A DNA stretch of 64,000 nt from Microbacterium sp. Lineage in GTDB: Bacteria > Actinomycetota > Actinomycetes > Actinomycetales > Microbacteriaceae. The position numbers were made by a program, and so were the translations under genes. A model generated the notes under the pieces. That model was not told the origin of the DNA, made no database searches, and worked only from the letters and a program-made list of their open reading frames with translations. This document shows positions 17,473 to 41,857 of the stretch, one piece after another (the first letter of the stretch is position 1; each line of letters starts with the position of its first letter). The DNA lies in contig JAPSKH010000002.1 of NCBI GenBank assembly GCA_031177765.1, positions 9,900-73,899 on the forward strand, written 5' to 3'.

Positions 17473-18612
17473 GTGGCCGCACGGCTTCCCTCTGCGCCAC
17501 CCATCCTGCCGGGACTGGCGTACATCCGGCCTCTCGGATCGGGCGGCTTCGCCGATGTCTTCCTCTACGAGCAGGACATGCCGCGTCGCAACGTCGCGGT
17601 GAAGGTGATGCCCAGCGACGTGCGGGATCCGGAGCTCCGGCGCATGTTCAACGCCGAGGCGGACGTGCTGGCGCACCTCTCGGCGCATCCCTCCATCGTG
17701 ACCGTCTACCAGGCCAGCATCTCGGCCGACGGGCGTCCCTACATCGTGATGGAGTACTGCCCCGGATCACTCGCGCAGCGCTACCGGGTCGAGCGCATCC
17801 CCGTCGACGAGGTGCTCACCATCGGCGTGCGCATGGCCAGCGCGCTGGAATCGGCTCATCGCGCCGGGCTCGTGCACCGCGACGTCAAACCCAGCAACAT
17901 CCTCGTCACCACCTTCGGCACGCCGGTGCTCGCCGACTTCGGCATCTCGTCGTCGCTCCTGCGGCAGTCGCCCGACGAGGTGCTGGCGATGTCGATCCCG
18001 TGGAGTGCGCCGGAGGTGATCGCCGAGCAGACCGCCGGCACCGTGGCCAGCGAGGTGTGGAGCCTCGGCGCGACCGTGTACTCGCTGCTTGCCGGGCACA
18101 GCCCGTTCGAGCGGCGAGAGCGAGGACAGAACTCCAAGGAGCTGCTGCGCCGGCGGATCGCGCGCGCCGCCTACGTCGACATCCCGCGTCATGACGTTCC
18201 CCCGTCGCTGCAGCGCGTGCTGGCGACCGCGATGAGCCGCGACCCCGCGCGCCGCCAGCCATCGGCGCGCGCATTCGCAGAGGCGCTGCGCGAGGTGCAG
18301 GCCGAGCTCGGGCTGTCGCCGACGCCCATCGAGGTGCCGGACGTGGACTGGACGCCGGCATCCGGTCCGGTGGACTTCTCAGACGCGGCGCTGCGGGGAC
18401 CCGCGCGCTCGCGGATCGAGCGCGAGACGACCCGCAAGCGGCCGGTCGGCGCAGGCGTGGCGGCGCTCGTGCGCGACGAGGACACCGACATCTCCGCGCC
18501 CTCGCGCGCCCGGACGCGTGTGCTGCCCTGGGTCGTGGGCGTCGGCGCCGGCGTGGTGGCAGGGGGCGCGATCGCCGTCGCCGCGCTGCTGGCCGCGGGG
18601 GCCCTGGGATGA
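17473..18612 (+). CDS. Hanks-type Ser/Thr protein kinase with C-terminal TM anchor
   Basis: LGSGGFADV, VAVK, HRDVKPSN, DFG, SAPE, SEVWSLG; terminal hydrophobic helix. Confidence 0.95.
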   Translation: MAARLPSAPPILPGLAYIRPLGSGGFADVFLYEQDMPRRNVAVKVMPSDVRDPELRRMFNAEADVLAHLSAHPSIVTVYQASISADGRPYIVMEYCPGSLAQRYRVERIPVDEVLTIGVRMASALESAHRAGLVHRDVKPSNILVTTFGTPVLADFGISSSLLRQSPDEVLAMSIPWSAPEVIAEQTAGTVASEVWSLGATVYSLLAGHSPFERRERGQNSKELLRRRIARAAYVDIPRHDVPPSLQRVLATAMSRDPARRQPSARAFAEALREVQAELGLSPTPIEVPDVDWTPASGPVDFSDAALRGPARSRIERETTRKRPVGAGVAALVRDEDTDISAPSRARTRVLPWVVGVGAGVVAGGAIAVAALLAAGALG

Positions 18613-21600
18613 GGCGCAGCACCCTCGGCGGACTGGTCGCCGGCGGCGTGGCCGTCGCGCTCGTCGTGGGCGTCAGCGTGGTGTGGCCGGGACTGGACGC
18701 CCAGGAGACCCCTGAGGTCGACGCCGCCGTGTGGGCCCTGCAGACCGGTGAGGGCCGCCGTTACGCCCGGGTGAACACCGCGGTCGGAGAGCTCGACACC
18801 GTCCGCAGCATCAGCAACCCCGATCAGGTGGTCCAGACCGCGGATGCCGCCTACGTGTTCAGCGACAGCTACAGCAAGGTCACGCGGATCGACGAGGCGA
18901 TGCCGGTGGACCTCGACGAGGAGATGCTGCAGGCGTCGCCGTCCACGCCGCCGGGCACCGTGGAGGTCGTCACAGCGGGGGACCACGTCGCCTACCTGAC
19001 CGACGCGGGGGCGGTGTACGCCGGACTCCTCTCGTCCGGCGCCCCCGCGCAGCTGGACCCGTTCCCCTCCGACGACGAGGATGCGCCGCAATACGCCGCC
19101 GAGGCGATCGCGGTCGACGATCGGGGCATGCTGTTCAGCTACTCCCGCGAGGACGGCTCCGTGCTGCGCTACGACATCCGCGAGTCGGCGGTGCGCGGCC
19201 GGGATCCGCTGGAGGCCGAAGGCCTCGCCGCTCCGGCGATCACGGCGGCAGGCGACACGTGGGCGGTCGTGGACACCGAGGACGGCGACGTGTGGCTGCG
19301 CGGCGCCGACGGTGCGGCATCCGCCCCCACCACCGGCACCGTCGTCGTGGGGGAGCCGGACGCCCGGGGCGCCGATGTGTACCTGGCCGACGAGACCGGC
19401 CTCGTCCGCGTGCCGGTGGACGGGTCCGGGATGGACGTCGAGGTGGGGGGCACCGCCGGCGCGGTGCTCGGGACGCCCGCGGAGCCGGTGAACCACGACG
19501 GCGAGACCTTCGCGGCCTGGCTGCCGCAGGGCGAGACCGGCGGCGTGCTGTGGCGCTCGGGCAGCGCCGAGACGGTGCCGCTGGATTACGGCGGCGAGGC
19601 GATGCCCGACGAGCGCCGCCCGGTGTTCGTCGCGGGCGGGTCGACCCTGATCCTCAACGAGACCCGGTCGGGGTGGGCGTGGTCCCTGCCCGACGGCGCG
19701 CTCATCGCGTCGAGCCAGGACTGGTCGCTCGATGACCGCACGAACCCGGACGCCGTGCCCAGCCAGGAGCAGCTGCAGGTGGTGCTCGACCCGAAGCCGC
19801 CGATCGCCGAGCCCGACGCCTTCGGCGTGCGGGCGGGGGCCCTGGCATCCCTGCCGGTGCTCATGAACGACCACGATCCGAACGAGGACGTGCTCGCCAT
19901 CGACCCCGCCTCCGTGACGGGACTGGATCCCGGGTTCGGCACCGTCACGATCACCGACGACGGTCAGCGGTTCGCGGTGCGGGTCGCGCCGGGCGCGACC
20001 GGCTCGGCGTCGTTCTCATACGCGGTCACCGACGGCACGACCGCCGGCGGACTGGTGTCGGAGCCGACCACGGTCACCGTGACCGTCGTGGAACCGGACG
20101 CCAACGCGGCGCCGGAGTGGTGCGGGGTCGACCGCTGCCTCGTGGAGTGGCCCGAGCCGCAGGTCGCCAGGGGCGGCACCGTCACCGTGCCCGTGCTGCC
20201 GGGATGGGTCGACCCCCAGGGAGACCCGCTCCTGCTGCTGGGAGTCCAGAACGTCACCGGGACCGGCAGCGTCGCCGCCACCCCCGGCGGCGACGTCGTC
20301 TACCAGCACAGCGACTCCGGCGACTCCGGCGACGAGGTGGTGGAACTGGCGGTCACGGTGGCCGATACGCACGGCGCCACAGCGACGAAGTCGCTCATGG
20401 TGACGGTGTCATCCCAGCCGCAGCTGGCGGCGCAGTCGTTCGCCGTCGTCGACACCGTCGGCTCGGGCATCACGGTCGACGTCGCCGACCATGTCACCGG
20501 GACGGCGGGCATGCTCACGCTGGACTCGGTGCGGGTGCTCGATGACGCCGCGGCGACCGCGACCATCGCGGGCGGGTCGACGTCCTTCGATTTCTCGGCG
20601 CGGGAGGCGGGAACCTTCCGGGTCGACTTCACGGTCACCGACGGCACCTCCGAGGCGACCGGCACGGCCCGCATCACGCTGCTGCCCGCCGATGCCCCGG
20701 CGCAGCTGGCGACCTCGCCCGTCGTCGCGTTCGTGCGTCCGCAGGAGGATGCCACGCTCGAGGTCTTCGACGCCGTCTCGAACCCCACGCGGCGGGTGCT
20801 GCTGCTCAGCGATGTGGTGGCGACGGCGGAAGAGGGCGCCACGCTGTCGGTCGATGCGGTGGGGCAGAACCACCTGCGGGTGTCCGGCTCCACGGCGGAC
20901 GGGGCACCGGGGCGTCTGGGCACCGTCTCGTACGTGGTCAGCGACGGAACCGAGGACGAGGGCGCCCGGGTGGAGGGGCAGGCGACGGTGTACCTGCTCC
21001 CGCCCGCTCCCGAGCTGGCGCCCATCGCCGTCGACGACGCCGTCGTCGTGCGCGCCGGCGCACAGATCGACATCCCGGTGCTGGTCAACGACATCTCGCC
21101 GGCGGGCGGGCGGCCGGCGCTCAACCCCGAGGCGGTGACGTCCTCGACCGGTGCGGCGCTGGCGTTCGCGTCCGGCGACGTGCTGCGCTACCTCGCCCCC
21201 GACGAACCCGGCGAGTACGCCGTCGAGTACGGGGTGTTCACGACGGGCTCGCCCTCGCTCGCCGACACGGCGCAGGTGCGCGTGCGGGTCATCGACGACG
21301 AGGCCAACCGCGCCCCGACGGCCGACACCCTGGAGGGGCGCGTGCTGAGCGGGCAGTCGGCGACCATCGACTTCGACGGCTTCGGCATGGATCCCGACGG
21401 CGACGTCGTGACGCTCGACCGCATCGTCGAGCAGCCCGAGCGCGGAGCGGCGACCATCTCGGCCGACGGCACCTCGATCGTGTACACGAGCGTCCCGGGC
21501 GACGCCGGCCAGGTCTCGTTCCGGTACCGCGTGGTGGACGCGCTGGGCGAGACGGGTGAGGGGACGGTCCGCGTCGGCGTCCTGGACGGCGAGGCCAATC

Positions 21601-24566
21601 CGAGTCCGGTCACCTTCACCGACTACGTCCAGGTGCAGGCGGGCGCCGACAACACCATCCGCGTGAGCCCGCTGTCGAACGACATCGATCCGACGCTGGG
21701 AACGCTGCGGATCACCGACATCCGACCGGACCTTCCCGAGACGCTCGTCGACGGCAGCGACAACCCCGAGTTCGCGCGCCTGTCCGAGCGCATCGTCTCT
21801 GTCGACGACACGACGGTGGTGGTCGCGGCGGGCGAGGAGCCGGCGACGATGTCGTTCCTGTACGACGTCGAGTCGTCCTCGGGCAACACCGGCCGGGGCC
21901 TGATCGTGGTCAAGGCGGTGCGAGAGAGCGTGCCCGACTACCCGATCGTGTCCGACACGATCCTCACGGTCGAGACGCGCGAGGACTTCCCGCGCGGCGT
22001 GGACGTCGTCGCCGGGAAGGTGATGTGGTCCGGCGGTGACGTGTCGGATCTCGAGGTGTCCCTGTGGGGCGACCCCGAGGACGTCACGGTGACAGGGACC
22101 CGCCTTCGGGGTGAGCTGCCTGCGAGGACCCGGCTCATCCCCTTCGCCGTGACCGGCGAGGGCACCTCCGGCCAGGTCACCTCGTACGGCTTCCTGAAGG
22201 TCCCCGGCGACGACGACGTCGCGTTGACGATGCGCGCGGGCGCGACGCCCCCGACCGTGGACGAGCTCGATTCGGTGACGTTCGACCTCGCGGGCCTGGT
22301 CGCCCGTCCGCGCGGCTCCCAGCTGGAGGTGGGCGCAGACGTGCGGGCGTCGGGAGCGCGTCCCGAGGCCGCGTGCGCGGTGGTCTCCGACACGACGGTC
22401 CGCTACGACGCCGGCGCCGGAGCGCCGTGGGTGGACGCGTGCCAGGTGCCGGTGCGACTGGCGGGGACGGACGACTGGACCTATCTGTCGGTGCCGGTCA
22501 TCGTCCATCCCCGCGATCCGCAGCCCGAGCTGCGGCCGGCATCCATCACCGTCGGGCCCGGCGAGACGGCGACGTTCGACCTGCGCAACATGACGACGTG
22601 GCAGCTGCGCGAGGACTGGAGCGGCATCCGCTACGGCATCGAGCACGGCGGCAGCGCATTCGAGGTCGCCCAGGAGGGGTCGATCGTGACCGTCACGGGC
22701 GCCGACCGCGCCGTGCCGGGTGCGGAGGAGGCGGTGGTGGTGTCGGCACCGAGTCACACCGCCGTCGCGCCGGCGCGGCTGCTCCTGCGCGTGGGCGCGG
22801 CGCCGTCGACGCTGCCGCAGGGCGGGTCGGTCGTGCAGCAGTGCTCGCAGTCCTCGGGATCGTCGTGCACGATCGACGTCATCGGCGGGAGCGGCGAGGT
22901 CAATCCGCTGCCGCGCACGCCCCTGGAGGTGGTGGCCGTCCGGCCGACCGGCGCATGCGTGGGCGTGAGCTTCCACGTGGCATCCGGCTCCGCCGTCACC
23001 GCGTCCTGGGCGAGGGATGCCCCCGGCGCGACGTGCAGCGCGACCTTCTCGGTGCGCGACGCGCAGGGACGTGTCACCAGCTCCGAGCGCGACGGGCGGC
23101 TGCTGCTGGATCTGCTCGGCTTCCCCAAGTCGCCCGCCAGCATCGTCCAGACCGGCTACGCCGACGGATCGGTCACGCTCCGGGTCGATCCCGGCGAGGC
23201 CCGGCTGGCATACCCGTCCCTCGCCGGCTTCGTCGTGCGCACCGGCGGCGCCGAGGTGGCCCGGTGCTCGGCGGACGGGACGTGTCCGCCGATCGCCGCG
23301 CCCAACGGCGACCAGCGCACGTACGAGGCGTGGGCCGTCAACGCCGTCGGGGAGTCGCGCGCGAGCGTGCGGACGGTCGCGTGGGCCTATGACGCGCCGG
23401 GCGCACCGGCGAGCGTCGAATGGGAGCCCGTCGTCACGTCCGACGGCGCCGGCGGCATCATCTCGCTGTCGATCGAGGGCGTCGACGCCTCGGAGACGGG
23501 CATCCTCGAGATCTCCAGTCCGTCGGGCGAGACCGTCCGCGTCCCGGTCGGGCGCAACGACGAGCGCGTCGAGGTCCGCAGCTTCCGCGTCGGGGCGAAC
23601 GTCCCCACACCGGTCACCATCACGCCGTATTCGCGCTTCTCGCTGCCGCCGGGGCTCGGCGGTCAGCCGTCCGGACAGTCCGTCACGGTCAACGCCCACG
23701 GGGTGGGGGCGCCGCTGAACGTCACGCTGTCCCTGACCTCGCGCTCGACCGGCAACAATCAGTCCACGGTGGAGGCCGTGGCGACGGCGCAGCAGAACGG
23801 CATGGGGTCCGAGCTGCGGTACGACATCGTGCCCTACGACCAGCGGTTCCGCTGCGACCCTGTGGTGGGAGGCGACCGTGCCTCGTTCCCCGGGCTGGCC
23901 GACGGCGAGGAGTATCGCTTCGTCGTCTGCGTCGAGTCGTGGTACGAGGGAACCGCGTTCGGCAGCAGCGGCGCCGAGGCGAGCGTGCGGGCCACCCAGA
24001 GCGGCGCCGCGCCGCAGGGGTACACGTTCGTGGTCGACCGTCAGCCGCTGATCGAGGGGCAGCAGGCGCGCTGGCGCATCACGCGCGACCCGCAGTCGAG
24101 CGAGAACCCGCCGCGCAACAACGAGGTGCACTTCGAGAACTGGGGACCCGGTTCGACCATCTATGACCGCAACCCGGAGATCAGGGTGTTCTACCGGCAC
24201 CGGCTGTGGGGCACCGAGTCGGCACGGGCTCCGGTCACCCCGGCCCCCGGCAGCGCGCCGTATCAGGTGCAGGCGCGCTGGTCGATCGACGGCTGCACCG
24301 CCGGCAGCACGCTGCAGCGCGGCTCGTCGTCGAGCAACGGCGAGGGCACCGTCACCTGGTCGGATGCCCGCATCCGGTTCTACGACGCCAGCGGCGCGCA
24401 GCTGCCGTACACGGCCGGCTCGTGGACGGTGCCGGCGGGAGCCGCGAGCGTTGAGGGCGTGGAGGTGACCGTGTCGTGGAACGCGGCGTGGAACCTGGCG
24501 CCCGCGACACAGCAGCTGAGCGCCACATGCGACCCCGGGACGCCGCCGACGCAGCCGGCACCCTGA
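18609..24566 (+). CDS. Giant surface protein with Ig/cadherin-like (Big_9-type) and FN3-like repeats
   Basis: N-terminal signal/anchor; repeats PIAEPD/PIAVDD/PVTFTD with VLxNDxDP and DPDGD motifs; FN3-like YEAWAVNAVGES and GLADGEEYRFVV; 1985 aa. Confidence 0.9.
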   Translation: MRRSTLGGLVAGGVAVALVVGVSVVWPGLDAQETPEVDAAVWALQTGEGRRYARVNTAVGELDTVRSISNPDQVVQTADAAYVFSDSYSKVTRIDEAMPVDLDEEMLQASPSTPPGTVEVVTAGDHVAYLTDAGAVYAGLLSSGAPAQLDPFPSDDEDAPQYAAEAIAVDDRGMLFSYSREDGSVLRYDIRESAVRGRDPLEAEGLAAPAITAAGDTWAVVDTEDGDVWLRGADGAASAPTTGTVVVGEPDARGADVYLADETGLVRVPVDGSGMDVEVGGTAGAVLGTPAEPVNHDGETFAAWLPQGETGGVLWRSGSAETVPLDYGGEAMPDERRPVFVAGGSTLILNETRSGWAWSLPDGALIASSQDWSLDDRTNPDAVPSQEQLQVVLDPKPPIAEPDAFGVRAGALASLPVLMNDHDPNEDVLAIDPASVTGLDPGFGTVTITDDGQRFAVRVAPGATGSASFSYAVTDGTTAGGLVSEPTTVTVTVVEPDANAAPEWCGVDRCLVEWPEPQVARGGTVTVPVLPGWVDPQGDPLLLLGVQNVTGTGSVAATPGGDVVYQHSDSGDSGDEVVELAVTVADTHGATATKSLMVTVSSQPQLAAQSFAVVDTVGSGITVDVADHVTGTAGMLTLDSVRVLDDAAATATIAGGSTSFDFSAREAGTFRVDFTVTDGTSEATGTARITLLPADAPAQLATSPVVAFVRPQEDATLEVFDAVSNPTRRVLLLSDVVATAEEGATLSVDAVGQNHLRVSGSTADGAPGRLGTVSYVVSDGTEDEGARVEGQATVYLLPPAPELAPIAVDDAVVVRAGAQIDIPVLVNDISPAGGRPALNPEAVTSSTGAALAFASGDVLRYLAPDEPGEYAVEYGVFTTGSPSLADTAQVRVRVIDDEANRAPTADTLEGRVLSGQSATIDFDGFGMDPDGDVVTLDRIVEQPERGAATISADGTSIVYTSVPGDAGQVSFRYRVVDALGETGEGTVRVGVLDGEANPSPVTFTDYVQVQAGADNTIRVSPLSNDIDPTLGTLRITDIRPDLPETLVDGSDNPEFARLSERIVSVDDTTVVVAAGEEPATMSFLYDVESSSGNTGRGLIVVKAVRESVPDYPIVSDTILTVETREDFPRGVDVVAGKVMWSGGDVSDLEVSLWGDPEDVTVTGTRLRGELPARTRLIPFAVTGEGTSGQVTSYGFLKVPGDDDVALTMRAGATPPTVDELDSVTFDLAGLVARPRGSQLEVGADVRASGARPEAACAVVSDTTVRYDAGAGAPWVDACQVPVRLAGTDDWTYLSVPVIVHPRDPQPELRPASITVGPGETATFDLRNMTTWQLREDWSGIRYGIEHGGSAFEVAQEGSIVTVTGADRAVPGAEEAVVVSAPSHTAVAPARLLLRVGAAPSTLPQGGSVVQQCSQSSGSSCTIDVIGGSGEVNPLPRTPLEVVAVRPTGACVGVSFHVASGSAVTASWARDAPGATCSATFSVRDAQGRVTSSERDGRLLLDLLGFPKSPASIVQTGYADGSVTLRVDPGEARLAYPSLAGFVVRTGGAEVARCSADGTCPPIAAPNGDQRTYEAWAVNAVGESRASVRTVAWAYDAPGAPASVEWEPVVTSDGAGGIISLSIEGVDASETGILEISSPSGETVRVPVGRNDERVEVRSFRVGANVPTPVTITPYSRFSLPPGLGGQPSGQSVTVNAHGVGAPLNVTLSLTSRSTGNNQSTVEAVATAQQNGMGSELRYDIVPYDQRFRCDPVVGGDRASFPGLADGEEYRFVVCVESWYEGTAFGSSGAEASVRATQSGAAPQGYTFVVDRQPLIEGQQARWRITRDPQSSENPPRNNEVHFENWGPGSTIYDRNPEIRVFYRHRLWGTESARAPVTPAPGSAPYQVQARWSIDGCTAGSTLQRGSSSSNGEGTVTWSDARIRFYDASGAQLPYTAGSWTVPAGAASVEGVEVTVSWNAAWNLAPATQQLSATCDPGTPPTQPAP

Positions 24567-24598
24567 CCACCGAGCATCCCCAGAAGCGAAGGACACAC

Positions 24599-25564
24599 AT
24601 GAGCATCACGCAGGAGCAGGCCGACTGGTTCGCGCAGACGTTCGGCCAGATCGCCGACAACGTCGAGCGCGCCGTGCTCGGCAAGCGCCACGTCGTGGAG
24701 CTCGTCCTCACCGCGATGCTCAGCGACGGCCACGTGCTCCTGGAGGACGTCCCCGGGACGGGCAAGACCTCGCTCGCGCGAGCGATGGCGCAGTCGGTGC
24801 AGGGCACCAACACGCGCATCCAGTTCACGCCCGACCTGCTTCCCAGCGACATCACGGGTCTGAGCGTCTACGACCAGAAGGAGGGGGTGTTCGAGTTCCA
24901 CTCCGGCCCCATCTTCGCCAACATCGTCCTCGCCGACGAGATCAACCGCGCGAGCCCGAAGACCCAGTCGGCGCTGCTGGAGGTCATGGAAGAGGGGCGC
25001 GTCACGATCGACGGCGTGACCCGGCCGGTCGGCGTGCCGTTCCTCGTGCTCGCGACGCAGAACCCGGTGGAGCAGGCCGGCACCTACCGGCTTCCCGAAG
25101 CGCAGCTGGACCGCTTCATGATGCGCACGTCGCTCGGCTATCCCGATCACGCCGCCACCGTCCGCATCCTCGACGGCGCCGCCATCGCGACCGCCGAGCT
25201 GGCGCCGGTCATCACGCCTCAGGCGCTGGTGGGGATGGCCGACATCGCGGCCCAGGTGTACGTCGACGCGCTCGTGCTCGACTACATCGCGCGGCTCGTG
25301 GACGGCACGCGGGCGGCGGACGAGGTGCGGCTGGGCGTCAGCATCCGCGGCGCCCTCGCCCTCACCCGGGCCACCCGCACACGCGCGATCGCGCAGGGCC
25401 GCACCTACGCGACCCCCGACGACGTGAAGGCGCTCGCGGTGCCCGTGCTCTCGCACCGGCTGATCCTGCACCCCGAGGCGGAGTTCGATGGGGTGACCCC
25501 CGAGACGGTCGTCGGTCAGGTGCTCCTCGACGTCGCACCGCCCAGCAGGCGCGAGGCCGTATGA
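24599..25564 (+). CDS. MoxR-family AAA+ ATPase
   Basis: DVPGTGKT, RIQFTPDLLPSD, LADEINRASPKTQSALLE, ATQNP, LPEAQLDRF. Confidence 0.95.
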   Translation: MSITQEQADWFAQTFGQIADNVERAVLGKRHVVELVLTAMLSDGHVLLEDVPGTGKTSLARAMAQSVQGTNTRIQFTPDLLPSDITGLSVYDQKEGVFEFHSGPIFANIVLADEINRASPKTQSALLEVMEEGRVTIDGVTRPVGVPFLVLATQNPVEQAGTYRLPEAQLDRFMMRTSLGYPDHAATVRILDGAAIATAELAPVITPQALVGMADIAAQVYVDALVLDYIARLVDGTRAADEVRLGVSIRGALALTRATRTRAIAQGRTYATPDDVKALAVPVLSHRLILHPEAEFDGVTPETVVGQVLLDVAPPSRREAV

Positions 25565-31021: not shown

Positions 31022-31779
31022 CCGGGGCCGGTCACGAACACACACCCCCGACCGCTCGCACCGACTTCTCCGCGCGCGCCGCGGACGAGGGGACTCCCGA
31101 CGACGCGACGGTGATCTCCACCCGGCGGTCCGCCGAGACGACGCCGGACGATGCGACGCCGGACGACGCCACGCCGGACGACGCCACCATTCTCGTGTCG
31201 CGGTCAGGGCGCTTCCCGGATGCCGCACGCGCATCGCCTCCCGGCTCGGCGGCGCCTCCTCCGGGACCGCGCCGGACCGCGTCCTCCCCCGACTCCGCGG
31301 CGACGCCCGACGATGCGACCGTGGTCGCACCGCGGCGTGGCGAGCGGGCGGCAGCTCTCCAGCCGGACGACCCGGACGATCGGACGGCCATCGCAGGGCG
31401 GCGCGCGCCCGAGCCTGCGCGAGGCCCCGTCGCCGGTCCGGCGGCCGGCGCGGAGACCGACGAGACACAGCTGCGAGGCGTTCGCCGCCGTCAGCCGACG
31501 GCGCCGGCCGCTGCCGACGAGGGAGCCGGTCGCACCGCCTACGTGCCCGACGCCGACGGGGTGACGGGCCGCCGGCCGCCTCGCAGACCCACGGCCGTCG
31601 TCGCACCCCGGACGATCGCGCCCGCGCCGCGAGCCGACGTCGCGTCGCTCCCGGCCGATCTCGCGCGCGTGCACCGCCGGCACCGTGCACGCCGCCGCCG
31701 CACCGTCGTCGCGATGGCGTCCGTCGCCGTCGTCGCGCTCGCGGCGGCTGTCGCCGGCGTCCTGCTCCTGCTGATCTGA
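31018..31779 (+). CDS. Disordered TPDDAT-repeat protein with C-terminal TM anchor
   Basis: GTGA overlap with upstream gene; five TPDDAT units; Arg-rich stretch then terminal hydrophobic helix. Confidence 0.75.
   Translation: MTGAGHEHTPPTARTDFSARAADEGTPDDATVISTRRSAETTPDDATPDDATPDDATILVSRSGRFPDAARASPPGSAAPPPGPRRTASSPDSAATPDDATVVAPRRGERAAALQPDDPDDRTAIAGRRAPEPARGPVAGPAAGAETDETQLRGVRRRQPTAPAAADEGAGRTAYVPDADGVTGRRPPRRPTAVVAPRTIAPAPRADVASLPADLARVHRRHRARRRRTVVAMASVAVVALAAAVAGVLLLLI
31141..31185 (+). repeat. Three tandem 15-bp repeats encoding TPDDA
   Basis: acgccggacgatgcg acgccggacgacgcc acgccggacgacgcc. Confidence 0.9.
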
Positions 31780-31795
31780 ACCCCCCGAGGATGCG

Positions 31796-33103: not shown

Positions 33104-36100
33104 AGCTGAAGCTGAGCCTGCGTCGTGGCGCGGGGTCGTCCGTCGACGTCCTCGTCACCGCCGACTCGACCGCGACGGTGCAGGACGTCGCGCGCGCCCT
33201 CGCCGAGGGTGACGCCCTGGCCGCCCCCGGCGCCGTCAACGCCAGCGACACGCCGACGCTGCTCGTGGCCTCGCCCGCCGGTCAGCCGGTGCATCTCGAT
33301 CCCGCCACACCCATCGGCGACGCTCCCATCGGCTCCGGTTTCGACGCCTCCGTCGTGCCGGCCGCAGCCGGTGGATCGGGCAGCGCCGCGACGGCGGCGG
33401 TCATGCGGATCCACAGCGGTCCCGATGCCGGCCGGACCGTGCCGCTGGCGGCGGGCTCGACCGTGATCGGGCGCGTGTCACCGGCGCAGGTGCTGCTGGA
33501 CGATCCGCTGGTGTCCAAGCGGCACGCCCGCGTCGACGTCGATCAGGGCATCGAGCTGGTCGATCTCAACTCCGCCAACGGACTGGTCGTGGACGGCGGA
33601 CTCGTGCAGCGCGTCCGCGTGCTGCCCGGCCAGCGGATCACGATCGGCGCCACCGAGGTCTCGTTCGCGCTGGTGCCGCGCACGGCGACGGACGAGTCGC
33701 TCGTGCTCGAGCGCGGCGGCGCCCTGATGTTCAACCGGTCGCCGCGCGTCGAGGACCGCTACGCCGGTCAGGAGTTCCGGCACCCGATCATCCCCAATGA
33801 GGCCGACCCGCGCATCTTCCCATGGCCCATGATCATGGCCCCGGTGCTGCTGGGCTTCGCGATGTTCGCGATGACGCAGCGACCGACGTCGCTGCTGATC
33901 GTCGCCATGGCGCCGCTGATGATGCTCGGCAACTTCATCGGCCAGCGCACCCAGCAGGGCAAGAAGCTCAAGCTCGAGATCGAGACGTTCGAGGCGCAGC
34001 TGGACGAGCTCGAGGAGACCCTCGAGCGCGAGGAGGGGATCGAGCGGGAGCGCCGAAGGGCCGAGGCGCCGGCGACGGCCACGATCTACGAGAACGCGAT
34101 GTCGCTCGGGCCGCTGCTGTGGACGAGGCGACCCGAGCACTGGAACTTCCTCGGGCTCCGCCTGGGCGTCGGCTCCGCCGCGAGCCGCAACACCGTCCAG
34201 GAGCCGACCGATCAGCGCGGCATCGCGCAGTACGCGCAGGAGGTCCGTCGCATCCGCGACCGCTTCGCGCGGATCGACGACGTGCCGGTGATCGAGCTGC
34301 TGCCATCGGCGGGGGCGATCGGCATCGCCGGCCCGCGCGAGCTCGCCGCGGACGTCGTCCGTGGCCTCGGCGTGCAGCTGTTCGGCCTGCACGCGCCCAA
34401 CGAGGTGGTCACCGCCGCCATCATCGACCCCGCCTGGACCGGCGACATGGAGTGGATGAAGTGGCTGCCGCACACCACGAGCCCGCGCTCGCCCTTCGCG
34501 GAGATGGCGCTCGCCGACAGCCAGTCCGCCGGCACGGCGCTGCTGAACGGCCTCGAGGAGGCGATCCTCGAGCGGCTGTCGGGCTCGGCGACGCGTCGCG
34601 GCCCGCTTTCGGCGAAGGATGCCTCCATGGCGCTGGGCAAGCACGTGGGCGAGGCAGCCGGCAGCACCGCCACGGTGGGCGACGTCTCGCTCGTGCTGTT
34701 CGTCACGCACGACGCACCGGTGGACCGGCCGCGCCTGACGCAGGTGATCGAGCGCGGACCGGACGCGGGTGTCTACACCGTCTTCGTCGCTCCCACGGTG
34801 GAGTCCCTCCCGGCCGCGTGCCGGACGTACATCGACGTCTCCGGCGGTCTGGACGAGGCGATGGTGGGCTGGGTGCGTGCCGGCGACCGTGCCGAGAGCG
34901 TCGAGATCGAGGGCGTCTCCCGCGACTACGCCGAGATCTTCGCCAAGCGCCTGGCGCCCGTGGTGGACTCCAGCTCGGTCGCGGCCGACTCGTCGGATCT
35001 TCCCGCGAGCGTCTCGCTCCTGCGCCTGATCGGCACCGACATGGCCTCCGAGCCCCAGGCGGCGATCGAGCGCTGGGCGCAGAACAACTCGATCATCGAC
35101 CGCTCGCGGGGGCCGCGGCCGCGGCTGAAGCGCGCGGGCACGCTCAAGGCCTACATCGGGCAGGGAAGCCCCGACGCGATGTCTCTGGATCTGCGCACGC
35201 AGGGCCCGCACGCCCTCGTAGGCGGTACGACCGGATCGGGCAAGTCCGAGTTCCTGCAGGCCTGGGTCCTGGGAATGGCCGCCGAGTACAGTCCGGACCG
35301 CGTGACGTTCCTGTTCGTGGACTACAAGGGCGGCTCGGCGTTCGCGGACTGCGTGGAGCTTCCGCACTGCGTGGGCCTGGTGACCGACCTGAGCCCGCAT
35401 CTGGTGCGGCGCGCGCTCACGAGCCTGCGGGCGGAGCTCCATCACCGTGAGCACCTGTTCAACCGCAAGAAGGCCAAGGACCTGCTCGAGCTCGAGAAGC
35501 GGCAGGACCCCGAGACGCCCCCGGCCCTCGTGCTCGTCATCGACGAGTTCGCGGCGCTGGCCACCGAAGTGCCGGAGTTCGTCGACGGCGTCGTCGACAT
35601 CGCCCAGCGCGGCCGGTCACTCGGCATCCACCTCATCATGGCCACGCAGCGGCCCGCAGGCGTCATCAAGGACAACCTGCGCGCCAACACCAATCTGCGC
35701 GTGGCCTTGAGGATGGCCGACGCCGCCGACTCGAACGACGTCGTGGGCGACGTCGTGGCCTCCACCTTCGATCCGTCGCTGCCCGGGCGCGGCATCGCCA
35801 AGACCGGCCCCGGGCGCCTCGTCCCCTTCCAGTCCGGCTACGCCGGCGGCTGGACCACCGACGAGCCCGACCGGGCGCAGGTGCGCGTGGCGGAGCTGCG
35901 CTTCGGGTCGGTGACCCTGTGGGAGTCCGACAGCGAGGGGGAGTCGGACACCCACGACGAGGATCTCGGGCCCAACGACCAGAAGCGGCTGGTCGCCAAC
36001 CTCGTGCGTGCCGCGGCCGATGCCCGCATCCCGGCGCCGCGCCGGCCATGGCTCGACGACCTCGCGGCCACGATCGATCTGCGCGACCTGCCGCTGGACG

Positions 36101-37590
36101 GCGGCGACGAGGTCATCCCGATCGGTCTCGCCGACATCCCGCAGCGGCAGCTGCAGGAGGCGGTGTACTTCCGTCCCGACACCGACGGCCACATGCTGGT
36201 CTACGGCACGAGCGGCGCCGGCAAGAGCGTGGCGCTGCGCACGATCGCCATCGCGTCCGGCGCGCGTCCGCAGCTGGGACGGGTCGCGGTGTACGGCATC
36301 GACTTCGGCACGGGTGCGCTGCGCTCGCTCGAGACGATGCCGCACGTGGGCTCGGTCGTCGCCGGCGACGACGTCGAGCGCGTGCAGCGCCTGCTTCGCA
36401 CGCTCCGCGGCGTGCTGGACGACCGTGCCAAGCGATTCTCCGCGGTCAACGCCGCGACGCTCACCGAGTACCGGCGGATCACCGGTGACCTGACCGAGAC
36501 GCGCATCATCCTGCTGCTGGACGGCTTCGGCATGTTCAAGCAGGACTGGGAGACCGTCTCGGCGCGCGCGTCGTACTACGCGATCTTCATGCGCCTGCTG
36601 GGGGAGGGGCGGCCGCTCGGGGTCCACGTCGTGGCCACGGCCGATCGCTACGGCGCCGTTCCGACGGCGGTGAGCGCCAACGTGACCAAGCGCATCGTGC
36701 TGCGCATGTCGGACGAGGGGTCGTACTCGATCCTCGGCGTCGCCAAGGACGTGCTCAATGAGCGCAGCGCTCCCGGCCGCGCGATCGTCGACGGCTTCGA
36801 GACGCAGGTGGCGGTCATGGGCGGAACCACGAATGTGGCCGAGCAGAACGCGGCGGCCGAGGCGTTCGCGGCGTCGCTGCGGGCCGCCGGGGCGGTCGAG
36901 GCCAAGAACATCGGGTCGCTTCCGACCGAGCTCGACCCCGCCGAGCTTCCCGCCAGGGTGGACGGGTTCCCTGTCCTGGGCATCGGCGACGACACGCTCG
37001 GGCCCAAGGGATTCGAGCCGATCGGCACGTTCGTCGTGGCGGGGCCGCCGCAGAGCGGCAAGACCACGGCGCTGCGGGCCATCGTGTCGTCCCTCGAGCG
37101 CTTCGATCCCGAGGTCGAGCTGTTCCACGTCGGCGGCCGCCGGGCGGCGCTGCGCGAGGGGCGTTCCTGGCGGCGCTCGGTCTCGGCGATCGAAGACGTG
37201 CGGGCGCTGGCGAAGGAGCTCAAGGAGATCGTCGCCGACGAGACGATCACCAAGCGCATCGCGATCGTCGTGGAGAACATCACCGAGTTCAGCGACACCG
37301 ATGCCGAGCGACCGCTGAAGGAGCTGTTCCAGGCGGTCAACCGCAGCGACCACTTCCTGGTCGCCGACGGCGACGTGTCGCAGCTCAGCAGCGGGTTCGG
37401 GCTCATCGGGGAGCTGAAGGCCGGGCGCAAGGGCATCGCGCTGCGACCGGACACCTACGACGGCGACTCGCTGTTCAAGGTGCAGTTCCCGAAGGTCCAG
37501 CGGCACGAGTTCCCGGCCGGACGCGGCCTCTTCGTCGAGAACGGGCGATTCGTCACGGTGCAGCTGCCGCTCATGAACGGTCGCCTCTAG
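33100..37590 (+). CDS. FtsK/SpoIIIE-family type VII secretion coupling ATPase (EssC/EccC-like) with N-terminal FHA domain
   Basis: FHA (VIGR, SKRHA, DLNSANG), two TM helices, coiled coil, three P-loops GTTGSGKS / GTSGAGKS / GPPQSGKT; GPHALVGG, FVDYKGG, VIDEF, GRSLGIHLIMATQRP. Confidence 0.93.
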   Translation: MKLKLSLRRGAGSSVDVLVTADSTATVQDVARALAEGDALAAPGAVNASDTPTLLVASPAGQPVHLDPATPIGDAPIGSGFDASVVPAAAGGSGSAATAAVMRIHSGPDAGRTVPLAAGSTVIGRVSPAQVLLDDPLVSKRHARVDVDQGIELVDLNSANGLVVDGGLVQRVRVLPGQRITIGATEVSFALVPRTATDESLVLERGGALMFNRSPRVEDRYAGQEFRHPIIPNEADPRIFPWPMIMAPVLLGFAMFAMTQRPTSLLIVAMAPLMMLGNFIGQRTQQGKKLKLEIETFEAQLDELEETLEREEGIERERRRAEAPATATIYENAMSLGPLLWTRRPEHWNFLGLRLGVGSAASRNTVQEPTDQRGIAQYAQEVRRIRDRFARIDDVPVIELLPSAGAIGIAGPRELAADVVRGLGVQLFGLHAPNEVVTAAIIDPAWTGDMEWMKWLPHTTSPRSPFAEMALADSQSAGTALLNGLEEAILERLSGSATRRGPLSAKDASMALGKHVGEAAGSTATVGDVSLVLFVTHDAPVDRPRLTQVIERGPDAGVYTVFVAPTVESLPAACRTYIDVSGGLDEAMVGWVRAGDRAESVEIEGVSRDYAEIFAKRLAPVVDSSSVAADSSDLPASVSLLRLIGTDMASEPQAAIERWAQNNSIIDRSRGPRPRLKRAGTLKAYIGQGSPDAMSLDLRTQGPHALVGGTTGSGKSEFLQAWVLGMAAEYSPDRVTFLFVDYKGGSAFADCVELPHCVGLVTDLSPHLVRRALTSLRAELHHREHLFNRKKAKDLLELEKRQDPETPPALVLVIDEFAALATEVPEFVDGVVDIAQRGRSLGIHLIMATQRPAGVIKDNLRANTNLRVALRMADAADSNDVVGDVVASTFDPSLPGRGIAKTGPGRLVPFQSGYAGGWTTDEPDRAQVRVAELRFGSVTLWESDSEGESDTHDEDLGPNDQKRLVANLVRAAADARIPAPRRPWLDDLAATIDLRDLPLDGGDEVIPIGLADIPQRQLQEAVYFRPDTDGHMLVYGTSGAGKSVALRTIAIASGARPQLGRVAVYGIDFGTGALRSLETMPHVGSVVAGDDVERVQRLLRTLRGVLDDRAKRFSAVNAATLTEYRRITGDLTETRIILLLDGFGMFKQDWETVSARASYYAIFMRLLGEGRPLGVHVVATADRYGAVPTAVSANVTKRIVLRMSDEGSYSILGVAKDVLNERSAPGRAIVDGFETQVAVMGGTTNVAEQNAAAEAFAASLRAAGAVEAKNIGSLPTELDPAELPARVDGFPVLGIGDDTLGPKGFEPIGTFVVAGPPQSGKTTALRAIVSSLERFDPEVELFHVGGRRAALREGRSWRRSVSAIEDVRALAKELKEIVADETITKRIAIVVENITEFSDTDAERPLKELFQAVNRSDHFLVADGDVSQLSSGFGLIGELKAGRKGIALRPDTYDGDSLFKVQFPKVQRHEFPAGRGLFVENGRFVTVQLPLMNGRL

Positions 37591-37724: not shown

Positions 37725-37744
37725 CATGGGGAATGATCCCCATG
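37725..37744. promoter_or_regulatory. Palindromic operator candidate upstream of the WXG100-like gene
   Basis: CATGGGGA-ATGA-TCCCCATG perfect inverted repeat; TACCGT (-10-like) at 37766-37771. Confidence 0.6.
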
Positions 37745-37815
37745 GGCCGATTCGGGCGGATCCGTTACCGTGAATCTCGGCCGGGGGTTCCGGTCCCACT
37801 GACGAAGGAGATGTG

Positions 37816-38103
37816 ATGGCGGATTTCAAGGCTTCGTACGGCGAGATGGAGGCCATGGCCGGCAAGCTCGACACCGGTCGCGAGGAGATCGGCGACGTGC
37901 TGCGTCGCCTGAAGAGCGACGTGGACCGTCTGCTGGGTGACGACTTCAAGACGCAGCACGCGTCCGGCAAGTTCGGCGAGGGCTACACCGAGCTGACCAC
38001 GGGTCTGGAGAAGGCCATCGAGGGCATCTCCGACATGGGCGAGTCGCTGCGCAAGATGATGCAGGCGATCAAGGACACCGACCAGGCGCTGGCCGGCAAC
38101 TGA
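37816..38103 (+). CDS. WXG100-family type VII secretion substrate (FKT in place of WXG)
   Basis: 95 aa, helix-turn-helix pattern, central DDFKTQHASGKF, C-terminal IKDTDQALA; AAGGAG RBS; directly after EssC-like gene. Confidence 0.82.
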   Translation: MADFKASYGEMEAMAGKLDTGREEIGDVLRRLKSDVDRLLGDDFKTQHASGKFGEGYTELTTGLEKAIEGISDMGESLRKMMQAIKDTDQALAGN

Positions 38104-38169
38104 CCTGTCCGACTCGAGGGGTGGGAGGCTGCGGCTTCCCGCCTCTCGGCGTCCTGAGGAGTGGACCCG

Positions 38170-38496
38170 ATGACCGACGTGTACGTGAAGGTCGATCACC
38201 TGAATCGCCTGAACGGTTCGCTCAAGCAGATCCTCGTGGAGTTCGAGGACGCGGCGAAGAACACCGACGCCCTGCAGGACCTGATCGGGCGGCCCGACGG
38301 GCGGAGCGGACTCCGCGACCGCACGCATGACTTCGAGGGCGGCTGGGACGACCGGCGCAACGCCCTCATCGACAAGCTCAGGAACGTCCAGGTGGCGATC
38401 GAGGAGACCTGCAAGGGCTGGCAGGACTTCGACCTCGAACTGTCCCGCAATCTCTCCCTCGAGGAGAACGCGGGCGATACGCTGCCCACGCGCTAG
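38170..38496 (+). CDS. Second small helical WXG100-like partner protein
   Basis: 108 aa amphipathic helices; FEGGWDDRR; C-terminal WQDFDLEL; GAGGAG RBS. Confidence 0.7.
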   Translation: MTDVYVKVDHLNRLNGSLKQILVEFEDAAKNTDALQDLIGRPDGRSGLRDRTHDFEGGWDDRRNALIDKLRNVQVAIEETCKGWQDFDLELSRNLSLEENAGDTLPTR

Positions 38497-38504
38497 GAGA
38501 CGTG

Positions 38505-39854
38505 ATGGCGATCTACACCAACAAGAACCACCGCGTCCATGTGATCGAGGGCAATGCCCAGGGGATCATCCAGCGCGGTCAGCAGATCGAGGACCTGGGC
38601 GAGCAGATGATCGGCGCGGCCGGCGTGCTGTCCGCCATCGCCGACGGCGCCTCGGAGGAGAAGGGACGCTCGATCGAGCGCATCCGCGACGAGGTGGGCG
38701 AGACGCACGCCGAGCTGAAGCTCGCCGGCGAGCGGTACAAGCCGACCGGCACGGCGATGAAGGAGTACGGCTCGTCGCTCGAAGGCGTGCAGGTGGCGCT
38801 GAAGTCGCTGGTGACCGAGATCGAGACGGCGAAAGCGCAGCTGGACGCCAAGATCGAGGCGGCGCAGAGCGCGCAGGCGGCCGCCGATGCCTCCGCCGAC
38901 TACGACCCGGAGGACTCCGCCGCCAAGGGCAGCCACCGGGCCGACGCGTGGCAGGCCCGCGACGCCGGGATCGCCGCGGACAACGCGCGGATCCATTTCG
39001 ACGACCTCCTGGACGACTTCGACTCCCAATGGGACACGTGGGATGCGGCGTACGATCTCGCCCTCGGGCGGATCAACCAGGCGACGACGGGCAACATCAC
39101 CGACGAGTGGACCGACGATCTGGCCGGCGTCGCGGAGATCGTCGTGGACGTGCTCTCGGTCGTCGGCTTCGTCGTCGCGATCGCCGCGATCGTCATCGGC
39201 GGCCCGATCCTCGCGATCGTCGGCGCCGTCATCGGCGTCATCGCCCTGATCGCGACGGCGTTCCTGTACTTCAAGGGGCGCAAGGGCTTCGATGAGCTGA
39301 TGTGGTCCATCGTCGGCGTCCTCCCGTTCGGGAAGCTCGGCTCGTTGTTCAAGGCGGGGCAGCGGATGCAGGCGCTGAAGTTCCTGACCGGCCCGGTCGC
39401 CGAGATCGCCGAGAACATCAGGACGCTCCGGTCGGTCCGCGGACTGGTGAACGGGATCGCGACCGGAACCGGCAACGGCCTCGGCAACGTCGCGCGATCG
39501 GGTCTGGCCTCGCGGGTCGCCGACACGTTCGCGGGCATCCGATGGGGCGACATCACCTCCCGGAGCACCGCGGTCAACAATCTGCTTCGCGGCGGCAGCG
39601 GCGGGTGGTCGGCGAACATCCTCAGCGAGCTGGGAACGTACACCTCGCACCATCAGAACGTGATCCGGACCGTGTCCGGCCCGAACGGCCTGGTCGACGG
39701 GCTGTCCGAGCTGCCGAACATCGGTCAGCAGATCTTCAACGCCGGCGACATGGGCATCAAGACCTACGCGTCGGGCAACGACACGTGGGGGGTCATGAGC
39801 GGACTGTTCACCAGCAACCCCGCCGATTCCTGGCGTGAACAGCTCGCCCGGTAG
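38505..39854 (+). CDS. Putative type VII-secreted effector with helical N-terminus and central hydrophobic hairpin
   Basis: WXG/LXG-like helical N-terminus and coiled coil; ~48-aa hydrophobic stretch; IVGVLPFGKLG; Gly/Asn-rich C-terminus. Confidence 0.72.
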   Translation: MAIYTNKNHRVHVIEGNAQGIIQRGQQIEDLGEQMIGAAGVLSAIADGASEEKGRSIERIRDEVGETHAELKLAGERYKPTGTAMKEYGSSLEGVQVALKSLVTEIETAKAQLDAKIEAAQSAQAAADASADYDPEDSAAKGSHRADAWQARDAGIAADNARIHFDDLLDDFDSQWDTWDAAYDLALGRINQATTGNITDEWTDDLAGVAEIVVDVLSVVGFVVAIAAIVIGGPILAIVGAVIGVIALIATAFLYFKGRKGFDELMWSIVGVLPFGKLGSLFKAGQRMQALKFLTGPVAEIAENIRTLRSVRGLVNGIATGTGNGLGNVARSGLASRVADTFAGIRWGDITSRSTAVNNLLRGGSGGWSANILSELGTYTSHHQNVIRTVSGPNGLVDGLSELPNIGQQIFNAGDMGIKTYASGNDTWGVMSGLFTSNPADSWREQLAR

Positions 39855-39864
39855 CGTGGGAGCG

Positions 39865-41000: not shown

Positions 41001-41857
41001 CCCCCCGCGACAAGGCCGTCCAGACGGCGGAGACCATGGCACTGGACACGGGCCGGTCGGCGCGTTCGATCGCGCGCGATCTGCAGGATGTCGCCCTGCG
41101 CACCCTCGACGAGCGCACCGCGCAGCGGCTCGCTCTGGTGGACCGCGAGTTCGACCGGGCGGCGTCCGGGCTGGAGCGCGGCCTCTCGGCCGCCGCGGCG
41201 TCGGAACCTCGGAAGCGACGCCTGACGCCCCTCCCCGACACCCTCGGGATGCTCGCGGCAGGCTTCGGCGCCGCATCGGCGATGGGCGCCGGTCGCGTCG
41301 CCCCCTCGTCGCCCGTGAGCGAGCTGCCGATCGTGGGTCCGACCGTCCTGGTGTGCGCGTCGATCGCCGCCGTGGCGATCCTCACTGGCGCCGTCATCGC
41401 CAGGCGCGAGAGCTCGACCTCCTCGCCGCGTGCGGTGATGCTGTGGCTGACGCTCATCTGGTCCGCGATCGCTGCGGTGGCGATGTTCGTCCGGTTCGCG
41501 ACGGAGGGCGTGACGGCCGTCGCGATCGCCGGATCGGTCGCGATGGTCGCCGTCGCGATCCTCAGCCTTCTGCTGGCGCTGGGCGCACAGAGGCGTGCGG
41601 GCACGCACTCCGAGCCCGACGAGCCGACCCCCGCGGGGGCGCGCCTGCGCAACGAGCTGATCAGCGCCGGGGAGAACGCGCAGGACAGCGCGCACGCGGC
41701 GCTGGCGGAGCTCGACGAGAACCAGCGCGAGATCTTCGTCGACGCCTACGCCGCCGGCATCGCGGCCGTCATCGCGCGCCGTGCGCTCCCGGCACCGACC
41801 GTGAAGCGGCTGCGCACGCTGGACTGGGCGGCCGCGCGATACGACGTGTCATCCTGA
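40997..41857 (+). CDS. Membrane protein (3-4 TM), candidate immunity protein
   Basis: GTGA overlap; central hydrophobic helices; last gene of the effector unit. Confidence 0.68.
   Translation: MTPRDKAVQTAETMALDTGRSARSIARDLQDVALRTLDERTAQRLALVDREFDRAASGLERGLSAAAASEPRKRRLTPLPDTLGMLAAGFGAASAMGAGRVAPSSPVSELPIVGPTVLVCASIAAVAILTGAVIARRESSTSSPRAVMLWLTLIWSAIAAVAMFVRFATEGVTAVAIAGSVAMVAVAILSLLLALGAQRRAGTHSEPDEPTPAGARLRNELISAGENAQDSAHAALAELDENQREIFVDAYAAGIAAVIARRALPAPTVKRLRTLDWAAARYDVSS

Follow-up and report, generated by a model that had tools for sequence, protein, structure and literature searches.

Probable joining of an Esr/PFNA-type sensor block to a T7SSd-like secretion unit between rpoC and rpsL of a Microbacterium genome

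The locus described here lies in a stretch of 64,000 nucleotides from Microbacterium sp. (contig JAPSKH010000002.1 of assembly GCA_031177765.1, positions 9,900 to 73,899 of the forward strand). This stretch was analyzed at its full length and is termed the window; positions are counted from its first letter. The source is a metagenome-assembled genome (MAG) from a high-GC actinobacterium; it comprises 74 contigs with a total of 2.2 Mb and is 72.6% complete. Between 17473 and 41857, the window contains an island in which a block of kinase, giant Ig-like, MoxR, DUF58 and transglutaminase (TGase)-like genes is joined to genes of a type VII secretion system (T7SS). The island is a new example of the kind of locus published as Esr-Esx, T7SSd or PFNA and is not a new machine; it is real, conserved and coherent. 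The features are listed in Table 1, for which the domains of the open reading frames (ORFs) were called using Pfam and NCBIfam.

Table 1. Genes of the island and the domain evidence for each (aa, amino acids; TM, transmembrane).
Feature	Position	Strand	Evidence
Ser/Thr protein kinase (EsrE/TsdD/Pkb2-like)	17473..18612	+	Pkinase 1.8e-42
1985-aa surface protein (EsrA/TsdI/FN3-like)	18609..24566	+	Big_9, Cadherin_5, Cadherin_4
MoxR-family AAA+ ATPase	24599..25564	+	AAA_3 3.9e-62, AAA_lid_2, bpMoxR 1.1e-10
DUF58 (vWA-like) membrane protein	25561..26934	+	DUF58 1.5e-11
Predicted TgpA-like polytopic membrane pseudo-enzyme (EsrD/Tgm-like)	26931..29447	+	TgpA_N, Transglut_core
EsrG-like protein with DUF5684 membrane domain and FHA at the C-terminus, joined by a long disordered linker	29444..31021	+	DUF5684 1.4e-12, FHA 2.9e-10
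253-aa disordered single-TM protein (TsdH-like)	31018..31779	+	no family match
RDD (3 TM) and C-terminal FHA membrane protein	31796..33103	+	RDD 1.4e-09, FHA
EssC/EccC-type ATPase (TsdC-like)	33100..37590	+	TIGR03928 2.1e-160, FtsK_SpoIIIE, FHA
WXG100 (EsxA/TsdA-like) substrate	37816..38103	+	WXG100 1.4e-11, TIGR03930
108-aa helical protein	38170..38496	+	no family match
449-aa LXG/T7SS_signal-like substrate	38505..39854	+	ESM-Atlas cluster likeness
Soluble protein, first of three coupled genes	39865-40458	+	no family match
Soluble protein, second of three coupled genes	40455-41000	+	no family match
3-TM protein, third of three coupled genes	40997-41857	+	no family match; TM prediction

As the original prediction had stated, nine genes on the plus strand (17473-37590) follow each other with six 4-bp stop/start overlaps (ATGA or GTGA) and two short gaps. 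The overlaps are found between kinase and Ig protein (18609), MoxR and DUF58 (25561), DUF58 and TGase-like protein (26931), TGase-like protein and DUF5684-FHA (29444), DUF5684-FHA and 253-aa protein (31018), and RDD-FHA and EssC (33100). The gaps are 32 bp from the Ig protein to MoxR (ATG at 24599) and 16 bp from the 253-aa protein to RDD-FHA. After EssC, a gap of 225 bp precedes six further genes, for the WXG100 protein, the 108-aa helical protein, the 449-aa protein and three coupled proteins; the last three genes are joined by two 4-bp overlaps at 40455 and 40997. Scanning the inside of the island for promoters and terminators gave nothing above chance. The island is flanked by rpoB-rpoC (4657-12153) on one side and by rpsL-rpsG-fusA-tuf and the S10 operon (from ~42000) on the other. 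In the interval between rpoC and the kinase gene, minus-strand DUF3618 and holin-X genes are followed by four small genes without a family.

The kinase looks active, with the motifs VAVK, HRDVK, DFG and APE all present. Its TM helix is located at the C-terminal end (residues 354-372 of 379) and there is no ectodomain. The giant protein starts with a hydrophobic signal or anchor, continues with a beta-propeller (residues ~30-370) and then with Ig/cadherin-like repeats (~400-1200). Residues 26-420 were modeled using AlphaFold2 (AF2) with a 20-row alignment, which gave an all-beta fold at a pLDDT of 71.7. The top 50 Foldseek matches of this model in the PDB were all beta-propellers (50/50), among them YVTN, Pizza/NHL and WD40 folds as well as the sensor domain of PknD. 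TM prediction found no C-terminal TM helix in the giant protein, and its C-terminal ~785 aa (residues ~1200-1985, window 22209-24563) have no Pfam match; with a distal propeller, contact with the membrane complex would have to be made by this end. In MoxR, Walker A (GTGKT) and Walker B (LADE) are intact. The Asp of the metal ion-dependent adhesion site is absent from the DUF58 protein in 19/19 aligned copies.

The TGase-like protein reads GDDEQFA, AAWTEV and IDVTP at the sites where the catalytic Cys, His and Asp are expected. Asp replaces Cys in every Microbacteriaceae copy examined, including the second copy of the same genome, and in the subfamily of the window the His is lost as well. For a wider set, the 150 best representatives of clusters at 50% identity were used, 149 of which had E ≤ 1e-30; none of the 150 has Cys or His at the catalytic positions. 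Judged by these residues, the TGase-like protein of the window subfamily is a pseudo-enzyme, which could not work as a Cys-His-Asp enzyme. Without Cys and His, the protein is unlikely to anchor the rod covalently here; its role is probably to keep the rod at the membrane by non-covalent contacts.

The phosphothreonine-binding residues GR, SxxH and NG are invariant in the FHA domain of EssC (31 orthologues), and the same residues are invariant in that of RDD-FHA (19 sequences). The model of the EssC FHA domain matches FHA domains of the GarA/FhaA type with Z values of 15-16.5, the best match being 6i2q_B (Z 16.5). Possible ligands are encoded in the same operon. The 253-aa protein is disordered, has its TM helix at 235-253 and contains four repeats of the form D-D-x-T-[VIA]-[VIL]-x-x-R-[RS], whose threonines are T31, T57, T101 and T123. 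In the DUF5684 protein, the sequence EETVIARRR (T410) precedes the FHA domain by ~20 residues and is kept in 19/19 orthologues. The threonine motif has five matches in the island, four in the 253-aa protein and one in DUF5684-FHA, versus 0.22 in shuffles. Equivalents of the 253-aa protein in two related loci (L002 and L024) have the same architecture and a repeated threonine motif and are otherwise unalignable. The 253-aa protein is a candidate multi-phosphothreonine scaffold.

EssC consists of a beta-grasp-like domain (residues 1-88), an FHA domain (97-194), two TM helices and three P-loop domains (AF2, pLDDT 83.5). Walker A is present in all three P-loop domains, and a Walker B with DE in the first only. 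The protein is 88-90% identical to the EssC of several Microbacterium species; for Microbacterium kyungheense DSM 105492 and Microbacterium sp. Root180, which carry the same operon, the identity is 88-89%. The NCBIfam scores were 536 bits for EssC (TIGR03928, cut-off 778), 331 for EccCa and 322 for EccCb. The assignment of the ATPase to a type VII system which is neither T7SSa nor T7SSb is supported. The AF2 model shows residues 1-88 as strand-strand-helix-strand-strand with a pLDDT of ~90. A profile search of PDB sequences gave no match for this N-terminus, and hhalign returned a probability of 0.5% against six YukD/EccD-Ubl (ubiquitin-like) sequences. The structure search with the EssC model was filled by FHA matches and, thus, says nothing about the N-terminal domain. 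Going by the modeled fold, the beta-grasp-like N-terminus may stand in for the ubiquitin-like TsxB, which is absent from T7SSd. RDD-FHA is located directly upstream of EssC in nearly all of 80 related loci. Prediction of a complex between it and EssC residues 1-310, using paired alignments of 19 rows, scored 0.00 and gave no answer in either direction.

Two helical proteins of about 100 aa had been proposed as WXG100-like substrates. The first is indeed a WXG100 protein, but the second (38170-38496) fits no WXG100 model. This 108-aa protein is probably a Lap/AesA-like partner of the 449-aa protein; its gene comes before that of the LXG-like protein in at least 34 of 60 loci, and the pair is kept in most related loci. 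The latter was found in 51/60 loci and has a central hydrophobic hairpin and a C-terminus rich in Gly, Asn and Ser. Its nearest ESM-Atlas clusters (0.98) are named ‘LXG domain of WXG superfamily’, which is taken as a lead only; PF21725 is present in 14-29% of the members of these clusters. A motif of the AesB type (GYNVP or GYVNP) was not seen in the 449-aa protein. In at least 26 loci, the next gene after the LXG-like one corresponds to that at 39865-40458, and the three coupled genes (39865-41857) are candidates for chaperone and immunity genes.

None of the membrane parts of T7SSa (EccB, EccD, MycP) or T7SSb (EssA, EssB, EsaB) had been recognizable in the window, and this absence was borne out. 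Models for EccB, EccD, YukD, YukC, EssA and mycosin gave no match in any ORF of the island. The locus thereby differs from T7SSa, since EccB, EccD and MycP were not found with the ATPase, and from T7SSb, since EssB/YukC, EssA and EsaB/YukD were not found in the island, EsaA not having been searched for. The search was extended genome-wide, as had been suggested, and EccB, EccD and YukD were not found in the MAG at its completeness of 72.6%. As relatives, 150 Microbacteriaceae genomes of ≥ 90% completeness were used. A full-length EssC orthologue, defined as covering query residues 1 to ~1492 at ≥ 43% identity, is present in ~45 of them. EccB was detected in 14 of the 150 genomes, EccD in 27 (25 over the cut-off) and YukC/EssB in 3. 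Among the EssC carriers, canonical parts are restricted to G134 (EccB/EccD), G059 and G140 (YukC in both), and each time adjoin another ATPase, which is more distant; the remaining ~42 of 45 gave no match for a membrane part of T7SSa or T7SSb. One of these, G033, belongs to the same genus, is 100% complete and carries EssC with none of EccB, EccD and YukC. EssA was found in 0/5 complete genomes, and the search for EccE (PF11203) was uninformative, because its positive controls gave no match. These searches indicate that the EssC clade runs without recognizable T7SSa or T7SSb membrane parts.

Other candidates for such parts were rejected. Mycosin-like S8 proteases scoring 235-264 bits (cut-off 278.75) lie in a housekeeping region beside eno and ppx-like genes, far from EssC (G088:C1:517103-517969, G019:C1:1052481-1053356, G006:C1:2240177-2241301, G033:C1:1133123-1134010). 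Due to the scores below the cut-off and the housekeeping location, they were not accepted as the mycosin of the EssC system. Upstream of the kinase gene, 15071-16063 encodes a conserved 4-TM protein with a disordered N-terminus, and ~16063-16611 encodes a 4-TM protein of ~165 aa with a conserved acidic tail P-R/K-W-P-W-E (PRWPWE); neither belongs to a family. The former was excluded as a T7SS core protein, because it is single-copy in 124/150 genomes versus ~45 with EssC. The latter was excluded as well, since both upstream proteins stay in a genome whose slot lacks the ATPase (G118, see below). Both are residents of the slot between rpoC and rpsL.

EssC is linked to the kinase-Ig-MoxR-DUF58-TGase block in further genomes as well. 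In the 80 related loci, MoxR, DUF58 and TGase-like genes lie within 10 kb in some lineages only, with differing gene orders. On the EssC tree (60 loci), adjacency of the module has changed at least five times. The two parts were found separately in both directions. In G118, a genome of the same genus with 100% completeness, the block occupies the same rpoC-rpsL slot and is directly followed by rpsL, rpsG and fusA. Identities to the window are 80% for the kinase, 71% for the giant protein, 92% for MoxR, 81% for DUF58, 70% for the TGase-like protein and 48% for DUF5684-FHA. No RDD-FHA, EssC or WXG gene is present in this slot; the sole EccC-like gene of G118 lies on another contig, beside EccD. 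Conversely, the slot of another Microbacterium (L010, EssC 80% identical) has DUF5684-FHA, RDD-FHA, EssC and substrates without the block, and in two Agromyces loci (L011 and L018) the content is reduced to RDD-FHA, EssC and substrates. A further locus, L088, reads rpoC-EssC-substrates with nothing but substrates beside EssC.

Moreover, genomes contain 2-3 sensor blocks, most of which are away from any EssC. EsrA-like giants of ~2000 aa likewise number 2-3 per genome, also where EssC has no adjacent module. The genome of the window itself contains a second module of MoxR, DUF58, TGase-like protein, FHA and kinase, which is cut by the contig end (C22:8000-18331, L103). No EssC-like match was found in this part of the contig (1-8000 being left out), and the genome-wide search returned the copy of the window only. 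Taken together, the block is a mobile cassette with multiple copies; it was joined to secretion genes several times independently, and the window shows one such case.

Microbacteriaceae have a variable slot between rpoC and rpsL (window 12153-42620; L010, L011, L018, L101/L102). In relatives it is occupied either by one of the two parts on its own (block or secretion genes) or by both together, and the same small residents flank them at differing points. The DUF3618 and actinobacterial holin-X (Phage_holin_3_6) pair directly after rpoC (12217-13232, minus strand) is also kept in G118.

We consider it likely that the locus consists of two separable units, an Esr/PFNA-type surface sensor with a phospho-relay and a T7SSd-like Esx system. 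Unit 1 would span 17473-31021, perhaps up to 31779, and probably comprises a rod with a propeller tip, the MoxR/DUF58 pair, the pseudo-TGase, the kinase and a membrane-bound FHA output protein. Unit 2 (31796-41857) is likely to comprise RDD-FHA, an EssC/EccC ATPase with a phosphothreonine-competent FHA domain, the WXG100 protein, the Lap-like/LXG-like pair and the accessory genes. Such separability fits a regulatory sensor better than missing envelope parts.

A possible order of events was derived by analogy with the Esr preprint (PMC13622651) and with MoxR-vWA-propeller systems for the first two steps, and from the conserved motifs and intact FHA sites for the remaining three. A signal at the surface would be sensed by the propeller and the rod, and would be relayed to the membrane kinase by MoxR, the vWA protein and the pseudo-TGase. 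The kinase would then phosphorylate the threonines of the motif D-x-T-V-I-x-R-R, i.e., T410 of DUF5684-FHA and four sites in the 253-aa protein. These marks would be read by the three FHA domains of DUF5684-FHA, RDD-FHA and EssC, and either assembly of the ATPase or substrate choice could be gated post-translationally. A more specific version of this scheme, which we regard as doubtful and put forward tentatively, is that the FHA-carrying EssC of Microbacteriaceae works without a channel partner of a known family and is switched on by an FHA ‘zipper’. The phospho-repeats of the 253-aa protein and T410 would cluster the three FHA domains and drive oligomerization of the ATPase, while the dead TGase-like protein would hold the rod non-covalently and the beta-grasp domain of EssC would replace TsxB.

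Several points weigh against the two-unit reading. No membrane channel partner of EssC is recognized. A PP2C or other phosphatase (EsrF) was found in none of the ORFs between 12217 and 41857; the Esr preprint names esrF1 only, for Esr1 (PMC13622651), and a phosphatase may not be required for loci of the Esr2 type. The propeller is 65-83% identical across many Microbacterium, which is less variable than the arms-race sensor of the preprint. The pattern for the threonine motif was drawn up after the sequence had been seen. Phosphorylation and secretion in this organism are deduced from sequence and models. Finally, some module could be required in trans everywhere, since EssC loci without a module belong to genomes with modules elsewhere.

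The epibiont sensing and response (Esr) pathway (Wang, Colautti ... Mougous, bioRxiv 2026-09-09, PMC13622651) comprises EsrA, MoxR, a vWA protein, the transglutaminase-like EsrD, a kinase, a phosphatase and the FHA output protein EsrG. EsrA is secreted and filamentous, with Ig-like repeats and a terminal beta-propeller. Of 3502 Esr loci, 40% adjoin esx genes, and fusions of EsrG with EccC exist (PMC13622651). The window resembles this pathway, above all Esr2 of Schaalia odontolytica F0309 and the EsrG-EccC fusions, in having a giant protein of the Sec type, whose N-terminal beta-propeller is followed by Ig repeats, and in its MoxR, vWA/DUF58, TGase-like, Ser/Thr kinase and FHA output proteins. 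It also shares the integration into an esx operon, the FHA domain fused to the ATPase and substrates with non-canonical hairpin motifs. If membership is judged by EsrD, the window agrees in fold and family, but not in enzyme activity (Cys and His absent), and the idea of covalent anchoring is inapplicable as written in the preprint. Further differences are the lack of EsrF in the island, the presence of three FHA proteins, of DUF5684 and RDD membrane domains and of a multi-threonine single-TM protein, and a propeller which is fairly conserved within the genus. In addition, the effector is LXG-like with a hydrophobic hairpin and does not have the Gly-rich intrinsically disordered region of the AesB type.

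T7SSd was described for Actinomycetota (Olsenella, Bifidobacterium) by Garrett, Higginson and Palmer 2024 (doi 10.1101/2024.01.30.577966). Its parts list contains WXG100, an FHA-ATPase with an intact phosphothreonine site, a kinase, a single-TM disordered protein and the giant Ig-like protein TsdI, which is called ‘akin to EsaA’, and there is no ubiquitin-like component. The window matches this list for WXG100 (TsdA), the FHA-ATPase with the intact site (TsdC), the kinase (TsdD) and the giant Ig protein (TsdI), and it likewise lacks a free-standing ubiquitin-like protein. The 253-aa protein resembles TsdH (single TM helix, short disordered cytoplasmic part) by architecture only. TsdI has a Sec signal, Ig-like domains and a C-terminal TM helix; the giant protein of the window shares the signal and the Ig domains, but no C-terminal TM helix was found in it, and it carries an N-terminal propeller. 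The kinase is without an extracytoplasmic region, and MoxR, DUF58, the TGase-like protein, RDD-FHA and DUF5684-FHA are outside the published list. Hence, the claim of a distinct T7SS variant was right insofar as the system is neither T7SSa nor T7SSb; it is not new, however, as the type was published in 2024 and 2026 as T7SSd and Esr-Esx.

The PFNA operon of bifidobacteria has the order pkb2-fn3-aaa-atp-duf58-tgm-(prpC)-(hyp)-fha and is read as a host cytokine sensor, with no mention of secretion (PMC8430577, PMC6803598). The window has the same order of kinase, giant Ig/FN3 protein, MoxR-type AAA, DUF58, TGase-like protein and then an FHA gene, but it is without prpC and the operon continues into the type VII ATPase and substrates. 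That PFNA had not been described as a secretion machine agrees with the silence of the review on secretion, whereas the same type of module is tied to Esx in the Esr preprint. The MoxR-vWA-beta-propeller ternary conflict systems of the Aravind group (as cited in PMC13622651; bpMoxR PF20030) resemble the window in coupling a MoxR and vWA pair to a propeller sensor and kinase/FHA signaling; the MoxR of the window matches bpMoxR. They differ in that the propeller of the window is placed on an extracellular Ig rod, and its output is a secretion ATPase and not a toxin or nuclease effector. Resemblance without orthology, in function only, was noted to GarA/OdhI, where FHA and a nearby phospho-acceptor threonine motif recall the self-binding of GarA, and to TagH/Fha1-PpkA of the type VI secretion system, where a membrane kinase steers the secretion machine via an FHA protein.

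It is improbable that the proteins of the block serve the secretion apparatus as structural components or in its assembly, with an EsaA-like rod conduit, the kinase in the position of EssB and MoxR-DUF58 as assembly chaperone. The original prediction had explained the locus in this way, taking the block as supplier of the missing envelope parts; the notion of an Ig rod like EsaA together with a real kinase is already contained in the T7SSd proposal, which counts TsdD and TsdI as core parts and compares TsdI with EsaA (doi 10.1101/2024.01.30.577966). Translational coupling of the nine genes would suit such a function, as would the failure to find EccB, EccD, YukC and EssA in the genome of the window or in ~42/45 EssC-carrying genomes, and every genome checked which has no adjacent module has modules elsewhere. 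Dissociation in both directions speaks against it: the block occurs without EssC and WXG in the same slot of G118 and on contig C22, whereas EssC loci with substrates only, such as L088, or without the block (L010, L011, L018) are found as well. Besides, the supposed rod of the EsaA kind has an EsrA-type propeller, which is a sensor domain, and lacks a C-terminal TM helix. In Schaalia odontolytica F0309, deletion of the Esx-linked esrA2 left the export of EsxA/EsxB near wild type and abolished that of AesA/AesB (PMC13622651).

The same dissociation could be explained if the block were an independent surface system, an adhesin or a receptor for host or environment as in PFNA, and became a neighbor of the secretion genes only via the shared rpoC-rpsL slot. 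The slot holds differing combinations in relatives, the block is found alone in G118 and on C22, and the PFNA literature describes host cytokine binding with no link to secretion (PMC8430577). This explanation appears even less probable, since in the clade of the window the block forms one overlapping operon with RDD-FHA and EssC, and several EssC lineages apart from each other show such adjacency, in differing gene orders. A coherent relay would be made up of the kinase, the threonine motifs and the FHA domains, all three of which are intact and one of which belongs to the ATPase, and a functional link was shown in the preprint (PMC13622651). Service by a canonical core in the unassembled 27% of the MAG is very improbable, although the genome is 72.6% complete, EccB and EccD occur in 14/150 and 27/150 Microbacteriaceae genomes and a different contig of G118, a genome of the same genus, carries EccC paired with EccD, since of 45 EssC carriers only G134, G059 and G140 have canonical parts, beside separate distant ATPases, and the complete G033 has none.

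Under the two-unit reading, the window is a compact Microbacterium case of what would be a sensor-gated type VII system. The literatures on PFNA (bifidobacteria), T7SSd (gene neighborhood) and Esr (Schaalia genetics) appear to cover the same module without citing each other: PFNA as a term did not turn up in the Esr preprint text (PMC13622651), nor did type VII, WXG or FtsK in the PFNA review (PMC8430577). The comparison adds that module and secretion genes form cassettes which can be separated and which recombine in one rpoC-rpsL slot. Going beyond these papers, a TGase subfamily without Cys-His-Asp chemistry means that anchoring of the rod needs another explanation. With the conserved threonine motif, likely sites of phosphorylation by the kinase and of FHA binding can be named, and the proposed phospho-switch becomes directly testable.

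Further T7SS genes were encountered in the genomes of the family. In three Microbacteriaceae genomes, YukC (E 1e-57 to 1e-63) and YukD lie beside an EssC of 33-34% identity (G036:C20:173357-178510, G059:C1:271911-277144, G140:C1:1022629-1028312), a T7SSb-like set which is unusual in Actinomycetota. An EccC-like ATPase (~30% identity) adjoins EccD with no EccB match in G118 (C3:521052-526278, L104), G148, G070, G067, G032, G117 and G124, which suggests another reduced T7SS arrangement in Microbacteriaceae. Many genomes of the family contain an ORF of ~1000 aa at a distance of 2-4 kb from a TgpA-like gene, for instance G128:C23:65575-70464, G049:C17:138195-143371, G077:C1:2591518-2595933 and G088:C4:170982-176335. 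One of its P-loop domains is 45-53% identical to domain 1 of EssC, and the ORF may encode a short EccC-type ATPase tied to other copies of the module.

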